Below are positions 18,541 to 24,932 of a stretch of 64,000 nt of DNA, in pieces. Origin of the DNA: Alphaproteobacteria bacterium MedPE-SWcel (GTDB lineage: Bacteria; Pseudomonadota; Alphaproteobacteria; Rhodobacterales; Rhodobacteraceae); the NCBI GenBank assembly GCA_001874255.1, contig MPDC01000009.1, positions 30,490 through 94,489 of the forward strand, read 5' to 3'. How positions within the stretch are numbered: the stretch's first letter is position 1; the number at the start of each line of letters is the position of its first letter. The notes beneath the pieces are model-generated. The model made no database searches, was not told the DNA's origin, and worked only from the letters and a program-made list of their open reading frames with translations. A program made the position numbers and the translations under genes.

Positions 18541-19704
18541 CTATCCACCTTGCCCGGTCCGGAACCACGTCTCAGGGTCCACGGGACTGTTTTCCATTCT
18601 GACCTCTATATAGAGCGTTTCTGTCCGGCCAGTTCCACCCCCTTCACCGCTAAGTGACAAAATCGCGCCGCTCGGCGCCGATTTGCCGCCCATCAGACCG
18701 ATGGGCGTGCCCTCGGGGATCACCTGCCCGGTCTCGCCAAAGACCTCTGCCATCCCGGAGAGAATGAACAATGTATCCGGCTGCGGTTCAAGGACGGCCA
18801 CGCGCCCCAGATCCAGAAGCGGGCCGAGATAGCGGATGGTGGCGGCCGTCGGGCTGACCACGAGCGCCCGAGGCCGGGTCGCCACCAAAATGCCGGACCG
18901 CACAACGCCCGCGGCATCGCGCTCGCCGTAGCGGCGCAGCAGCAGCCCTTCGACCGGCAGCGGCACCGCGCCGCGCTGATCCGAAATATCGGCCGAGCTG
19001 GTCTCAACCCCGTTGGCCTCTGCAATCAGGGCCAGGCCGTCGGCAAACCCGGTCAGGGTCTCGGTCGAGGAAATCAGAATCGCCGTCTGCACCGGGTCGT
19101 CCGTAAAACGTTTGGGCAGATCCTGCCGATCTGCGATTGCGGTCGACAAGGCGGCACGGGCTGCCTGCACGCCCTGCAATCCCTCTTCGAGACGCTGCGC
19201 CGCGCTTTGCTGCAGGAGGCGCAGATCGCGGACCTCCTGCAGATCGTTGCGCAGTGCATCTGCACGCGCCTGCAGCCCTGGCGTGACCTCGGCCAGCATC
19301 ATCGCCGAACGGGCCGCCCCCAAAGGGCCCGAGGGGTGCAGCATCAACACCGGCGGGGTCGAGGTTTCGATGGTGGTGATGATCCCCAGAAGGTCGGCCA
19401 CCTCATCCTCGCGCGCCTTCAACTGGGTGGTGAGCTGGGTGTCGCGCCGCGCAACCCGGCGCAATCCGTCGCGCATGGCCTGAAGACCCGCCTCATAGGC
19501 GCGCACGGTTTCGGTCAGGGCCTTGACCCGATCCCCTGCGCTCTCGGCCTGATCCATCCGCTCCGAGGCGGCCTCGAGCGCGCGCGCGGCTTCGGCGGCG
19601 GCCTCTGTCGGGGATGGAGCCGCCGCCTGCGTCGACACAGGCGCGGCCAGTCCCAGTGCCAATGCCAGTCCCAGTGCCACGATCAACGCGCGGAGGTGCA
19701 TCAT
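18541..19704 (-). CDS. envC: Murein hydrolase activator EnvC family (coiled coil + degenerate M23)
   Basis: Signal peptide, long coiled coil, C-terminal LPVEG...LYIEVR; lies between gpmI and ctpA as in the conserved cluster. Confidence 0.82.
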   Translation of the reverse strand: MMHLRALIVALGLALALGLAAPVSTQAAAPSPTEAAAEAARALEAASERMDQAESAGDRVKALTETVRAYEAGLQAMRDGLRRVARRDTQLTTQLKAREDEVADLLGIITTIETSTPPVLMLHPSGPLGAARSAMMLAEVTPGLQARADALRNDLQEVRDLRLLQQSAAQRLEEGLQGVQAARAALSTAIADRQDLPKRFTDDPVQTAILISSTETLTGFADGLALIAEANGVETSSADISDQRGAVPLPVEGLLLRRYGERDAAGVVRSGILVATRPRALVVSPTAATIRYLGPLLDLGRVAVLEPQPDTLFILSGMAEVFGETGQVIPEGTPIGLMGGKSAPSGAILSLSGEGGGTGRTETLYIEVRMENSPVDPETWFRTGQGG

Positions 19705-21221
19705 GCCAGCAGGCTCTTTCCGGTCATTTCCGCAGGCTGCGGCAACTGCATCAGCTCCAGCAGGGTCGGCGCCAGATCCGCCAGACGCCCATCCCGCAGG
19801 GTGGCTCCCTCCGGCCCGTTCACCAGCGCCACGGGCACGAGGTTTGTGGTATGCGCAGTATGTGCCCCGCCGGTGACCGGATCCACCATCAGCTCGCAAT
19901 TGCCGTGGTCGGCGGTCACGATCATGGTGCCGCCCGCCTTTTTCAAGGCTTCCACCACCTGCCCGAGGCCCTGGTCCACGGCCTCGCAAGCCTTGATTGC
20001 GGCCTGCAGGTCACCGGTGTGCCCCACCATGTCGGGGTTGGCGTAATTCGTCACGATCAGATCATAGCCGGCCGCGATCGCCTCGACGAATTTTTCGGTC
20101 ACCTCGGGCGCCGACATTTCCGGCTGCAGGTCGTAGGTCGCGACCTTGGGCGATTTCGGCATGGCCCGGTCTTCGCCGACTTCGGGGGTTTCCTTGCCAC
20201 CATTGAGGAAGAACGTCACATGCGGGTATTTCTCCGTCTCGGCCAGACGGAACTGACGTTTGCCCTGCTTTGCCACCCATTCGCCCAGCGTGTTGACGAT
20301 CGCCGTCTTGGGATAGGCCGTCGTCATATAGGCATTGTGGCCGTCGGAATATTCGACCATTCCCAGCAGCGCCGCCAGATTGGGGCGTGGGCCTGTGTCA
20401 AATTCGGCGAACTCGGGTTCACCAATGGCCCGCAGGATTTCCCGCGCCCGGTCGGCCCGGAAATTGAGGCAAAAGACTCCGTCGCCGTCCTGGATACCGT
20501 TGAAATCGCCGATCACCGTGGCTTTGACAAATTCATCCAGCTCATCGCGACCGTAGGAGGCCTCGACCGCTGCTGTTGCAGTGTCAGCCGTGAACTGGCC
20601 CCTGCCATGGACCATCGCCTCGTAGGCCTGCGCAACCCGGTCCCAGCGGTTGTCGCGATCCATCGCGTAGTAGCGCCCGGTGACGGTCGCAATCCTGGCC
20701 CCGGCCGCCATGCCCGCCTCAACCTGATCCAGATAGCCAAGCGCCGATTTCGGCGCCACGTCGCGCCCGTCGGTCATCGCATGCAACCAGACCGGCACGC
20801 CCGCGTCCGCAATCGCCCTGATCGCGGCGAGGATATGGGTCACATGGCCATGCACGCCGCCATCGGAAACCAGCCCCATCAGATGCGCCGCGCCACCGGT
20901 CTTTTTCAGCGTCGCGATGAACGCCTGCAGAGCATCATTCTCGAAAAACGACCCATCCTCGATCGCGAGGTCGATCTGACCGAGATCCATCGCCACCACC
21001 CGGCCCGCGCCGATATTGGTATGCCCCACCTCGGAGTTGCCCATCTGCCCGCGCGGCAGGCCCACATCGGGGCCATGCGTGATCAGCCTGGCCATGGGGC
21101 TCTCGACCGTGATCGCATCCAGCGTCGGGGTCTTCGCCAGATAGGGCGCATTTGCGGGGCCCGGCTCGGCACTGCCCCAGCCATCGAGAATGCAAAGGAC
21201 AACGGGTTTGGGTGCGGGCAT
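19701..21221 (-). CDS. gpmI: 2,3-bisphosphoglycerate-independent phosphoglycerate mutase
   Basis: ILDGWG, GQMGNSEVGH, GRYYAMDRD, AETEKYPHVTFF, NPDMVGHTG and TADHGN. Confidence 0.97.
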   Translation of the reverse strand: MPAPKPVVLCILDGWGSAEPGPANAPYLAKTPTLDAITVESPMARLITHGPDVGLPRGQMGNSEVGHTNIGAGRVVAMDLGQIDLAIEDGSFFENDALQAFIATLKKTGGAAHLMGLVSDGGVHGHVTHILAAIRAIADAGVPVWLHAMTDGRDVAPKSALGYLDQVEAGMAAGARIATVTGRYYAMDRDNRWDRVAQAYEAMVHGRGQFTADTATAAVEASYGRDELDEFVKATVIGDFNGIQDGDGVFCLNFRADRAREILRAIGEPEFAEFDTGPRPNLAALLGMVEYSDGHNAYMTTAYPKTAIVNTLGEWVAKQGKRQFRLAETEKYPHVTFFLNGGKETPEVGEDRAMPKSPKVATYDLQPEMSAPEVTEKFVEAIAAGYDLIVTNYANPDMVGHTGDLQAAIKACEAVDQGLGQVVEALKKAGGTMIVTADHGNCELMVDPVTGGAHTAHTTNLVPVALVNGPEGATLRDGRLADLAPTLLELMQLPQPAEMTGKSLLA

Positions 21222-21354
21222 GTCACATCTCCGTGCGGTGATCGTGGTTTACGGCCGGTTCTACAGGCAGACGCGCGGTTGGGAAACCGGGGATGCGCGT
21301 GTTTGGCAGCCTTTTGCGCGCCATGGACACCGCCGGGGGCCTGTCAGACGGTCA

Positions 21355-24258
21355 TCAGCTGCCCGGCGGTGTCAACCGATCCCGAAGCAGGGCCAGAGGA
21401 TGCGCCTTCAGGCTGAGGCGCATGGCGACATAGTCCTCCACCACTTCCTCGCCGAGGGTCATCTTCGGCAGGTTGGCCTCAGGCTCATCGATGATTTCGC
21501 CATCAATCTCGCGCGAGAACAGCGGCAGGGGCTTTGCCGCCGACACCGCCTTGGCCGCCCAGAGCGCCTCTCGACGGTTCAGGCCCAAGCTGGCAAAGGC
21601 GTCCGCCTCTGCCAGCCGCTCGATCACCCGTGGCGCCAGCCCTGCCTTGCGCCAGACATCCTCTACCGTGTGATAGCCATTGCCGCGGGCCGCCGTCAGC
21701 CAGCCCGCGTCCTCTTCCGATATCCCCTTGATCTGCCGGAACCCCAGCCGCAGAGCCAACCCGCCACGCGCGTCGGGCTCCATCACATTGTCCCAATAGG
21801 AGCTGTTGATGCAAATCGGCCGGACATCGACCTGATGTTCCCGCGCATCCCGCACGATCTGCGCCGGGGCGTAAAATCCCATTGGCTGCGCATTCAGCAA
21901 CGCACAGGCAAAGATGCCGGGGTGATGGCATTTGATCCAGGCCGAGGCATAGACCAGCAGCGCGAAACTTGCCGCGTGACTTTCGGGGAAACCGTAGGCG
22001 CCGAAGCCCTCGATCTGGGAAAAACATCGCTCGGAAAATTCCGCGTCATAGCCGTTTTTCGCCATGCCCCGCAGAAACAGGGAGCGGAATTCGCTGACCG
22101 AGCCGTGTTTCTTGAAGGTCGCAAGCGACCGGCGCAGGCGATCGGCCTGTTCCGGTGTGAAACCCGCACCGACCATGGCAATCTGCATTGCCTGCTCCTG
22201 GAACAGCGGCACGCCAAGGGTCTTTCCAAGCACCTCGCCCAACGCATCCGACGGGAAAGAGACCGGCTCCTCGCCATTGCGACGCCGGATATAGGGATGC
22301 ACCATATCGCCCTGGATCGGCCCCGGACGGATGATCGCAACCTCGATCACCAGATCATAGAAATCCCGTGGCCGCATCCGTGGCAAGAAGTTCATCTGCG
22401 CCCGGCTTTCCACCTGAAACACACCGATGCTGTCGGCGCGACAGAGCATGTCATAGACTCGCGGATCTTCTGTCGGCAGGGTGGCGAGGGTGAAATCCTG
22501 CCGCAAATGCTGGTGCATCAGGTCAAACGCCTTGCGGATGCAGGTCAGCATGCCGAGGCTCAGCACGTCGACCTTGAGAATGCCCAATGCGTCGATATCG
22601 TCCTTGTCCCAGCAGATGACTGTGCGCCCCTCCATGCTGGCATTCTCGATCGGGACCAGTTCATCCAACCTGCCTTCGGTAATGACGAAACCGCCCACAT
22701 GCTGGCTCAGGTGACGGGGAAAGCCGATGATCTCCTCGACCAGCGCCATGGTCTGGATCAGTCGCCGGTCGGTGGGATCAAGGCCGATTTCACGCATCCG
22801 CTCCGCTTCGAGTCCCTGCGTCGTGAAAGACCCCCAAAGCTGGGAAGACAGCGCCGAGATGGTATCCTCGCTCAGCCCCATGGCGCGGCCCACCTCGCGA
22901 ATGGCGCGTTTGCCACGATAGTGGATCACCGTGGCACAGAGCCCCGCGCGGTGGCGCCCGTAGCGGTCATAGATCCACTGGATCACCTCCTCGCGCCGCT
23001 CGTGTTCGAAGTCCACGTCAATGTCCGGCGGCTCGTCGCGGGCTTCGGAAATGAACCGTTCGAAGACCATGGTGCCGATCTCGGGCGAGATGGAGGTGAT
23101 GCCGAGACAATAGCACAGGACCGAATTCGCCGCCGAGCCGCGCCCCTGGCACAGAATATCGCGGGAGCGGGCAAAGGCGACAATATCATTGACGGTGAGG
23201 AAATAGGCTTCGTATTTCAGCTTCGCGATCAGGGCCAGCTCGTGAGACAGCATCTGCTGCACCTGGGGGGTTGCCCCGCCCGGATAGCGCCATTTCAGGC
23301 CCGCATGCGCAAGGCGATGCAGGCGGTCGGCCGGGGTCTCGCCCTGACCTTCATCCGGATAGTCATAGCGCAGTTCATCCAGGCTGAAATTCAGCGTGCC
23401 CGCAAGGTCAGCAGCGCGGGTCACAGCCTCCTCGTAGCCTGCAAATATCCGGTACATCTCCGCTTCCGACCGCAGGCGCTGCTCCGCATTGGCCAGTGCA
23501 TTTCGCCCCAGGGCCTCGACCCGGAGACCGAGCCGGATGGCCGACAGCACATCCCCCAGACGGCGGCGGCTGCCGTGATGCAGGCGCGGTGCGGCCGCCG
23601 CCAGCGTCGGCAGGCCAAGCCGCCCGGCCACCTCTGTCAGCGCCGCAAACCGCTCCGTATCGGCGCCATCGTAGCCGGGCGCCATCAACAGATGCATGCG
23701 CCCGGCAAAGCGGCGCGTCAGAGCGCCCATATGCGGCCCCCATCCATACGCGCCGCATGGCAAGGGATGCGATTGTGGCACCAGAAGCAGGTGGAGATCC
23801 TGCGCGTGATCCAAAAGATCCTGCACGTTCAATATGCAAGACCCCTTCTCCGCCCGCAGCCGCCCCCTGGACACAAGCCGTGAGAGCCCTCCCCAGCCAA
23901 TGCGGGTCCGGGGCAGGACAATCACATCGGGTGCGTCTGTGAACACCAGCCGGGCGGCGGGAATCAGACGCGGCACCGCATGGATCGGGAAGCTCTCGCC
24001 ACCGGACCCATTCGCAAGAGGGTCAGGGCAGGGCGGACCAATCATCGTATGCGCACGCTCCCAGGCTTGTCGCTCCTGAACTCGCCGCGCGATGTCGCGC
24101 ACCGCCACATGCGCCCGCACAATCCCCGCAACCGAGTTCTCATCCGCGATTGCCACCCCTGCAATGCCAAGCTCCAGCGCCCGCGTCACGTACTCCTCGG
24201 GATGAGACGCCCCAGTCAGGAACGTGAAATTGGAAAGACAGGCGAACTCGACAAACAT
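21355..24258 (-). CDS. dnaE2: Error-prone DNA polymerase DnaE2 (ImuC), C-terminally short
   Basis: SNFTFLTGASHPEE PHP start, GRGSAANS, PPDIDVDFEHERRE, KVDVLSLG and YGFPESHAASFA. Confidence 0.93.
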   Translation of the reverse strand: MFVEFACLSNFTFLTGASHPEEYVTRALELGIAGVAIADENSVAGIVRAHVAVRDIARRVQERQAWERAHTMIGPPCPDPLANGSGGESFPIHAVPRLIPAARLVFTDAPDVIVLPRTRIGWGGLSRLVSRGRLRAEKGSCILNVQDLLDHAQDLHLLLVPQSHPLPCGAYGWGPHMGALTRRFAGRMHLLMAPGYDGADTERFAALTEVAGRLGLPTLAAAAPRLHHGSRRRLGDVLSAIRLGLRVEALGRNALANAEQRLRSEAEMYRIFAGYEEAVTRAADLAGTLNFSLDELRYDYPDEGQGETPADRLHRLAHAGLKWRYPGGATPQVQQMLSHELALIAKLKYEAYFLTVNDIVAFARSRDILCQGRGSAANSVLCYCLGITSISPEIGTMVFERFISEARDEPPDIDVDFEHERREEVIQWIYDRYGRHRAGLCATVIHYRGKRAIREVGRAMGLSEDTISALSSQLWGSFTTQGLEAERMREIGLDPTDRRLIQTMALVEEIIGFPRHLSQHVGGFVITEGRLDELVPIENASMEGRTVICWDKDDIDALGILKVDVLSLGMLTCIRKAFDLMHQHLRQDFTLATLPTEDPRVYDMLCRADSIGVFQVESRAQMNFLPRMRPRDFYDLVIEVAIIRPGPIQGDMVHPYIRRRNGEEPVSFPSDALGEVLGKTLGVPLFQEQAMQIAMVGAGFTPEQADRLRRSLATFKKHGSVSEFRSLFLRGMAKNGYDAEFSERCFSQIEGFGAYGFPESHAASFALLVYASAWIKCHHPGIFACALLNAQPMGFYAPAQIVRDAREHQVDVRPICINSSYWDNVMEPDARGGLALRLGFRQIKGISEEDAGWLTAARGNGYHTVEDVWRKAGLAPRVIERLAEADAFASLGLNRREALWAAKAVSAAKPLPLFSREIDGEIIDEPEANLPKMTLGEEVVEDYVAMRLSLKAHPLALLRDRLTPPGS

Positions 24259-24268
24259 GCCCCATTGT

Positions 24269-24283
24269 ATTCCCGTTTTGTTC
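24269..24283 (-). promoter_or_regulatory. LexA (SOS) box upstream of dnaE2
   Basis: Minus strand GAAC-AAAACGG-GAAT, one mismatch to alphaproteobacterial GAAC-N7-GAAC, 10 bp upstream of the dnaE2 ATG. Confidence 0.8.
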
Positions 24284-24313
24284 CGTTCGCGAGTCCCGCC
24301 ACGATCTCCCCTT

Positions 24314-24386
24314 CAGCGCGCCGCAGGCGCGCTGCCAAGCCCAACGGGCGAGGTTGCATTTTCAATGCAATCGAGACGGGCGGGAG
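24314..24386 (+). repeat. Dispersed palindromic (REP-like) element, copy 1
   Basis: Hairpin CAGCGCGCC-GCA-GGCGCGCTG followed by GCCCAACGGGCGAGGTTGCATTTTCAATGCAATCGAGACGGGCGGGAG, near-identical to 62234-62280. Confidence 0.85.
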
Positions 24387-24470
24387 AGCAACCGAACCCG
24401 CAGGATCCGGGTCGATCCTTTGGATTTCTGCGTTGATACTCAAAGCGTAACATCACCGAAGGTCTCTCAC

Positions 24471-24932
24471 ATGCCCCATATTGTCGCCATGCCCACCGAA
24501 ACCGTCCGCGCATATCAGGCAGGTCAGCCAGACGCCCATGGCCAAACACCGGAACGCGCCCTGTCCGATGGCGGCGGCAATCCCTGCCGCCATTGCCTCC
24601 GGTATATTCCCAAGGGGGCAGAGATGCTGATTCTCGCCCATCGCCCGTTTCCCACGCTGCACCCATACGCCGAAACCGGGCCAATCTTTCTCTGCGCCGC
24701 GGCCTGCGCGCGTCACAATGGAGACAGCCTGCCAGAGGTATTCACCCGTTCGCCTGACTATCTGATCAAGGGCTACTCGGCAGAGGACCGCATCCTATAC
24801 GGCACAGGTGCCGTGATCGCAAAAGACCGAATACTGAACGCCGCCGAAGAGATCTTTTCCGACCCCAAGGTGCGCTATATCCATATCCGATCCGCGCGGA
24901 ACAACTGCTATCAGGCCCGGATCGAACGATAG
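24471..24932 (+). CDS. DUF1203 domain protein
   Basis: GNPCRHCL, AHRPF, PYAETGPIFLC and YIHIRSARNNCY motifs. Confidence 0.85.
   Translation: MPHIVAMPTETVRAYQAGQPDAHGQTPERALSDGGGNPCRHCLRYIPKGAEMLILAHRPFPTLHPYAETGPIFLCAAACARHNGDSLPEVFTRSPDYLIKGYSAEDRILYGTGAVIAKDRILNAAEEIFSDPKVRYIHIRSARNNCYQARIER

Follow-up and report, generated by a model that had tools for sequence, protein, structure and literature searches.

Is a dnaE2 gene that ends just before its OB domain a curtailed polymerase acting alone, a gene falling into decay, or one part of something larger? The question is raised by an open reading frame (ORF) in a stretch of 64,000 nucleotides, hereafter called the window, from the draft genome of Alphaproteobacteria bacterium MedPE-SWcel (contig MPDC01000009.1; in our numbering C54:30490-94489 of the 54-contig assembly G000). 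Coordinates such as 21355-24258 are window positions; all others carry the handle of their contig or locus. DnaE2 drives damage-induced mutagenesis in many bacteria, and a first reading of the window, made from the sequence alone, had described the ORF as a stand-alone SOS-regulated DnaE2 lacking both its C-terminal OB-fold region and its imuA and imuB partners. We found that the OB domain is encoded by a gene of its own on another contig, that imuB and an imuA homologue are also present in the genome, and that the same two-piece arrangement recurs throughout much of the host family. We therefore consider the ORF to be, with a probability of roughly 0.75, the catalytic-core half of a two-gene DnaE2 belonging to a dispersed four-gene SOS mutasome, each gene having its own LexA-type operator.

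The window encodes a DnaE2 core that stops before the OB domain

The ORF (hereafter the core) scores 1206 bits against the NCBIfam profile NF004225 ('error-prone DNA polymerase'; cut-off 939), which places it in the DnaE2 family; the DnaE1 model NF004226 gives it just 467 bits. Its coverage of NF004225 extends over profile positions 6-938 of 1047 (5-938 when the whole assembly is searched). Pfam detects DNA_pol3_alpha, DNA_pol3_finger and HHH_6 in the ORF and no OB domain. The single-chain PHP-Pol3-(HhH)2-OB architecture (without CTD) is thus not that of the core, whose chain ends at profile position 938. The polymerase catalytic aspartates are retained in PPDIDVDF and KVDVLSLG (the DxD of PDxDxDF and the third Asp in K-x-D-x-L), and the 967 residues end in ...AMRLSLKAHPLALLRDRLTPPGS (also written ...LSLKAHPLALLRDRLTPPGS), immediately followed by the stop. 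Residues 204-927 of the core align with residues 182-932 of Escherichia coli Pol III alpha; the region around alpha residue 932 is where a linker joins the beta-binding domain to the OB domain, which places the cut in that linker.

In all these respects the sequence-only reading was accurate: the polymerase is cut at the OB boundary, the terminal SRDFH motif of full-length relatives is missing from it, the catalytic motifs are intact, an SOS-type box stands shortly before its ATG (Table 1) and neither imuA nor imuB adjoins it, the neighbours being gpmI on the downstream side and, upstream, a divergent DUF1203 gene. The remark that no frameshifted remnant can follow the stop also holds, the spacer to gpmI (21222-21354) being 133 bp long. 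The insert of ~40 aa in the PHP domain is likewise real in comparison with other alphaproteobacterial DnaE2 proteins; as full-length DnaE2 of the host family has it too, it is unrelated to the truncation.

The OB domain is encoded by a separate gene

When all 54 contigs of G000 were searched with the NF004225 profile, three matches were obtained: the core (5-938), DnaE1 on contig C52 and a third at C20:31920-32231. The last matches profile positions 942-1044 (E 1e-30), in direct continuation of the core, and lies in a stand-alone gene (Table 1). The absence of the OB domain from the polymerase, as claimed in the sequence-only reading, therefore has to be revised: it is encoded in trans by a gene that has a LexA-type box of its own.

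Stand-alone OB genes of this lineage have ~140-170 codons. Because a PDB sequence search with the OB protein gave no match at E <= 0.01, its fold was established by structure prediction. The AlphaFold2 model (40 homologues) consists of a five-stranded OB barrel and a C-terminal helix, preceded by a disordered N-terminal leader (mean predicted local distance difference test score, pLDDT, of 75, with 82-94 over most of the barrel), and its Foldseek matches are the OB folds of Stn1, RPA32, AspRS and ExoVII, which bind single-stranded nucleic acid. The leader varies in length (24-60 aa) and is near neutral. The conserved part of the protein opens with a nearly invariant WPRPPxCL segment, which has no counterpart in full-length DnaE2 and is confidently modelled as packing against the barrel; we speculate, from the model, that this segment might be a docking element. 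At the other end, OB proteins finish with ...DPAFAPPxDMG or shorter, full-length relatives all end in ...FPSRDFH, and the SRDFH tail of canonical DnaE2 is found on neither the core nor the OB protein. Members in the databases come from Phaeobacter, Leisingera, Tritonibacter, Cribrihabitans, Pseudooceanicola, Salipiger and other genera, where they are annotated as "OB-fold nucleic acid binding domain-containing protein".

Table 1. Location of the dnaE2 core, its neighbours and the dispersed genes of the predicted mutasome (bare numbers are window positions)
Feature	Position	Strand	Description
gpmI	19701-21221	-	downstream neighbour of the core
dnaE2 core gene	21355-24258	-	967 aa; PHP, palm/thumb/fingers, (HhH)2/beta-binding domains; ends at linker before OB domain
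LexA-type operator of the core	24269-24283	-	GAACAAAACGGGAAT, GAAC-N7-GAAT; 10 nt upstream of core ATG
Extra GAAC half-site	24285-24288		near core operator
DUF1203 gene	24354-24932	+	divergent from core
Stand-alone OB gene	C20:31761-32273 (L034:2842-3354)		170 codons from first ATG after box; Pfam tRNA_anti-codon OB domain
LexA-type box of the OB gene	C20:31697-31711 (L034 2778-2792)		perfect GTTC-N7-GTTC; divergent intergenic region
imuB	C54:24929-26668 (L045)		580 aa; IMS, IMS_C, DUF6504; 25 kb from core, ~4 kb before window start
imuA homologue	C6:12545-13339		265 aa; similarity to imuA of compact cassettes

The split is widespread in the host family

The distribution of the two pieces was analysed in a sample of 401 genomes, about one for each genus of the family, searched with the 102-aa core of the OB domain. 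The best 150 matches (65-93% identity) were all in frames of 101-431 aa, so that a stand-alone OB gene is present in at least 150 of the 401 sampled genera. Forty-three mostly complete genomes of the family were then re-scanned with NF004225. In each of the 24 re-checked genomes where the OB gene stands alone, taken from 24 genera besides that of the host, the core ends at profile position 938-962; the 15 genomes whose DnaE2 is full-length all lack a separate OB gene. The distance between core and OB gene in the re-scanned genomes ranges from about 0.2 Mb to more than 2 Mb and the two are never adjacent; complete single-contig genomes show the split as well. Thirteen of 18 genomes without a strong OB match have no DnaE2 at all. 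In another, the complete genome G303, all that is left of the two pieces are short, decayed stretches separated by 170 kb (G303:C1:2743817-2744029 and 2913198-2913368), and the draft G093, also among the 18, has a core and no detectable OB gene.

Beyond the family, a class-wide search of 300 genomes returned OB matches that lie nearly always in frames of more than 1000 aa, with a few sporadic short frames. Since almost all of these matches belong to full-length frames, the split is essentially a feature of the host family. The short DnaE2-type OB frames outside it include G668:C13:51526-51783 and G036:C1:3120422-3120682, among others, and the G036 fragment covers profile positions 760-1038; such frames suggest independent splits, or fragments, elsewhere in Alphaproteobacteria.

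Both pieces are conserved in the host genus

Eight other species of the host genus have the same two-piece split (nine genomes including G000); the remaining DnaE2-bearing species have a full-length gene ending in ...FPSRDFH. In each of the nine, the core stops 0-12 residues past ...LLRxxLTP and the OB frame is open. The two loci have a constant gene order, namely ABC ATPase, DUF1203, core and gpmI in one case and ferredoxin, OB gene and a conserved downstream block in the other, and in one near-complete genome of the genus they are 2.3 Mb apart. Ratios of non-synonymous to synonymous substitution rates (dN/dS) were calculated by the pairwise Nei-Gojobori method. They are 0.07-0.17 for the core (dS 0.17-1.2) and 0.06-0.24 for the OB domain (dS 0.37-1.4), compared with about 0.2-1.5 for the variable leader that precedes the OB domain. 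Purifying selection acts with equal strength on the two pieces (dN/dS about 0.1 at dS up to 1.3).

The sequence-only reading had named a full-length gene in close relatives (recent pseudogenization or assembly error) as grounds for rejecting its idea. In form this applies, since some species of the host genus do have a full-length gene, but those genes represent a different DnaE2 clade housed in a compact cassette. The nearest relatives share the truncation under purifying selection, and so neither recent decay nor faulty assembly accounts for it.

Several observations concern the surroundings of the core. The DUF1203-core neighbourhood is kept within the genus, and the DUF1203 gene could share the upstream regulatory region. 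In the spacer on the other side, the motif CTGTAGAA (gene strand; 21259-21268), upstream of gpmI, is kept in six or more of the nine species although the spacer has otherwise diverged; it could be a promoter or a regulator site for gpmI. The corresponding spacers of G001, G010 and G011 (L035, L036 and L039) contain GC-rich palindromic repeat units (ggccgataggccgggcagcgcccgaccc...) which resemble elements of the repetitive extragenic palindromic (REP) type and are absent in G000.

imuA and imuB are present but dispersed

The second half of the sequence-only description, that the polymerase lacks its partners, did not survive a search of the genome. imuB and an imuA homologue are both encoded in G000 (Table 1), which thus possesses imuA, imuB and dnaE2, although not as a contiguous cassette or operon: the four genes, counting the two dnaE2 pieces separately, are distributed over three contigs. 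The imuA homologue was recognized by its similarity to the imuA of compact cassettes (E 1e-21 to 1e-28), its score with NF033429 being 35.7 bits for a cut-off of 150. That model gave no more than weak matches in G000; one is probably recA, and the other was confirmed as the imuA homologue solely through the similarity to cassette imuA. A 200-codon ORF lying over the start of imuB (L045 2025-2627) was also considered as imuA and rejected, as it has no family match and contains the conserved TTGACC promoter and the LexA-type box of imuB; it is probably not a gene.

Two alternative arrangements are found among the genomes compared. In split-type genomes, imuB and imuA are dispersed as in G000: imuB is conserved over its full length (66-90% identity) and lies 16-25 kb from the core where this distance was measured, and imuA shows 63-82% identity. 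In full-length-type genomes, imuA, imuB and dnaE2 are contiguous, and the products of imuB and imuA are more distant from those of G000 (50-54% identity for imuB and 38-46% for imuA). One genome (G006) has neither arrangement, being devoid of imuA, imuB, core, OB gene and cassette. The dispersed four-gene form and the compact cassette were never found together in one genome, a mutual exclusivity that fits functional equivalence of the two forms.

Predicted LexA-type operators precede all four genes

In G000, imuB is preceded by a TTGACC promoter and a perfect GAAC-N7-GAAC box (GAACAAATACGGAAC) at -41 (gene and promoter region C54:24929-26709), imuA by a perfect GAAC-N7-GAAC box (GAACGAACTAGGAAC) at -32 and recA by tandem boxes. 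The 7 other split genomes examined all have perfect boxes before imuB as well as imuA. The GAAC-N7-GAAT sequence before the core is kept at the same place in 9/9 split-type genomes of the genus, and in 9/9 species a perfect GTTC-N7-GTTC box is located 2-70 nt before the ATG of the OB gene; by our own reading, this box overlaps in most species the -10 element of a TTGCCx-17-TATATT promoter directed at the OB gene. Altogether, boxes of the GAAC/GTTC-N7 type, which we read from the sequence as putative LexA operators, precede all four genes in 8-9 species.

The region containing the box of the OB gene is shared with a divergent [2Fe-2S] ferredoxin gene (L003 845-1246, minus strand; true start probably at MAKITY...). 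The ferredoxin might be SOS-controlled too, and its adjacency to the OB gene is kept in all nine species.

Probable origin of the split

The split cores group in a single clade with 100/100 support and a long stem; this clade is sister to a full-length DnaE2 of another genus and stands apart from the full-length DnaE2 of the host genus. A related genome (G210) has an intact imuB-dnaE2 pair followed by a gene block collinear with C20:34.6-41.1 kb of G000, i.e. with the block downstream of the OB gene. Since an intact dnaE2 is followed there by the same block, the OB gene occupies the ancestral dnaE2 locus and stayed in place. The core was parted from it by a rearrangement that broke within the linker between the domains, and the OB part acquired a promoter and an operator. 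Only G210 was informative in this respect: neither the surroundings of the full-length sister gene in G022 nor those in G394, except for the adjacent imuB, have anything in common with either G000 locus. In three genera (G141, G243 and G370) the core is separated from the OB gene by about 205 kb and the two are on opposite strands, which may reflect the original rearrangement, possibly an inversion.

A two-gene DnaE2 and its alternatives

If the core is half of a two-gene DnaE2, the system can be pictured as follows. DNA damage would lead to LexA cleavage and hence to derepression of the dnaE2 core, the OB gene, imuB and imuA. ImuB would bind the core through its PHP and (HhH)2 domains and tether it to the beta clamp. 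In published AlphaFold models the contacts of ImuB on DnaE2 are on PHP and (HhH)2 and not on the OB domain (PMC12926913); as the core keeps both domains, ImuB could still recruit it. The OB protein would supply single-stranded-template binding in trans, as a non-covalent small subunit. We infer from the sequence that the genes are transcribed and SOS-induced, that the two halves associate physically and that they have a role in induced mutagenesis.

Several points weigh against this interpretation. (i) The bare motif is not enriched genome-wide (105 perfect GTTC/GAAC-N7 sites versus 99 expected), and the case for the operators therefore rests on conservation at a fixed position in diverged DNA. 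(ii) The variable tail of the core shows no obvious conserved motif for docking. (iii) Without the SRDFH tail on either piece, the complex may differ from canonical DnaE2. (iv) The co-occurrence of the two pieces partly reflects shared ancestry from a single event. (v) The draft genome G093 (99% complete) has an intact core (G093:C77:37815-40715) and no detectable OB gene.

The main rival to the two-gene DnaE2, which we regard as unlikely though worth serious consideration, is that the core works without an OB domain, as the sequence-only reading proposed, and that the OB gene, once detached, was recruited to an SOS function of its own, such as protection of single-stranded DNA, without being a polymerase subunit. 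E. coli alpha cut at residue 917, and thus without its OB domain (the construct of PDB 2HNH), is presumably an active polymerase. The restriction of modelled ImuB contacts to PHP and HhH (PMC12926913) is compatible with a self-sufficient core, as are G093 and the DnaE2 proteins without OB domain listed by Timinskas et al. 2014 (PMC3919608), and the nearest structural matches of the OB protein are stand-alone OB proteins that bind single-stranded DNA, e.g. Stn1 and RPA32. If the two pieces had separate functions, however, frequent loss of one piece would be expected, and this is seen at most once. The pieces occur together in 24/24 re-checked genomes and in 9/9 split genomes of the genus, they are absent or decayed together, they show the same dN/dS and both have conserved SOS-type operators.

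A more elaborate form of the two-gene interpretation can also be envisaged, which strikes us as doubtful, in which the OB domain is a separately regulated licensing subunit that adds a timing checkpoint absent from single-chain DnaE2. The core stands behind the imperfect GAAC-N7-GAAT and the OB gene behind a perfect operator overlapping its -10 element; because of this difference, the OB subunit would appear later than the core, or only after severe damage. Its arrival, with docking via the newly conserved WPRPPxCL, would switch the ImuB-bound core to a form capable of translesion synthesis.

Far less probable is that the gene is a pseudogene broken by rearrangement, with both pieces decaying, or that the split is an assembly artefact. 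Some species of the host genus have a full-length dnaE2 and G000 is a 54-contig draft, but both breakpoints are inside long contigs, complete single-contig genomes share the split, and 150 genera or more have it. Every frame is open, dN/dS is about 0.1 at dS around 1, and real decay, as in G303, looks different, leaving short remnants only. We count this explanation as refuted by the conservation data. Rejoining of the halves by a split intein, for which split DnaE is a known precedent and to which the nearly invariant Cys of WPRPPxCL at the start of the conserved OB part could be suited, or by RNA trans-splicing, can be practically dismissed: an N-intein would not fit into the 0-12 non-conserved residues after the last conserved residue of the core, nor half an intron into the 133 bp between core stop and gpmI; the OB leader has a variable length, evolves almost neutrally and is predicted to be disordered; and the conserved Cys has no His-Asn before it.

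Relation to known systems

The genes assembled here into a putative two-piece DnaE2 system belong to the same protein families as the canonical imuA-imuB-dnaE2 (ImuC) cassette of Caulobacter, Mycobacterium, Pseudomonas and Myxococcus: a DnaE2 that passes the NF004225 cut-off, a Y-family ImuB of suspect catalytic competence with ImuB-C/DUF6504, and an ImuA homologue, all with the GAAC/GTTC-N7 direct-repeat boxes of Alphaproteobacteria. Unlike in the canonical cassette, the genes sit at three or more loci with operators of their own, DnaE2 is encoded as two chains and there is no ...FPSRDFH tail.

Neither the E. coli alpha 1-917 construct nor PolC is a natural two-gene enzyme. The former is a laboratory truncation (PDB 2HNH); the core aligns with alpha up to about residue 932. 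PolC, with its N-terminal OB domain, illustrates that this domain is positionally mobile in the C family, although as a circular permutation in one chain. The split DnaE of cyanobacteria, joined by a split intein (Wu et al. 1998, cited in PMC5054071), is likewise a C-family polymerase divided between two distant genes; there the split is within the replicative DnaE1 and is mended by protein trans-splicing, whereas here no intein blocks are found and the cut is exactly at a domain linker. Cutting of a mutasome component at a domain boundary has a precedent in DnaE2X systems, where ImuB is split into an inactive PolY and a stand-alone ImuB-C (PMC12926913; PMC6511836); in our case ImuB is whole and it is the polymerase that is split. 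The OB-less DnaE2 proteins in the domain-architecture survey of Timinskas et al. 2014 (PMC3919608) are probably the same truncated proteins or similar ones; we found no reference there to a separately encoded OB domain, to an SOS box before such a gene or to its presence alongside the core. Literature searches for a split DnaE2 or a trans-encoded OB gene found no description, and the arrangement is apparently undescribed.

Implications

By itself the core can be taken for a truncated or orphan DnaE2, and the small OB gene carries only a generic OB-fold annotation. Surveys that discard truncated sequences, as was done in a 2026 survey (PMC12926913), will for this reason misjudge the system. Mutasome genes need not adjoin one another, and four separate predicted LexA-type operators may replace one operon. 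In a large, experimentally tractable marine family, the OB domain has been separated from its polymerase naturally and stably and, because nature has made this separation, its function can be tested by clean gene deletion instead of protein engineering.

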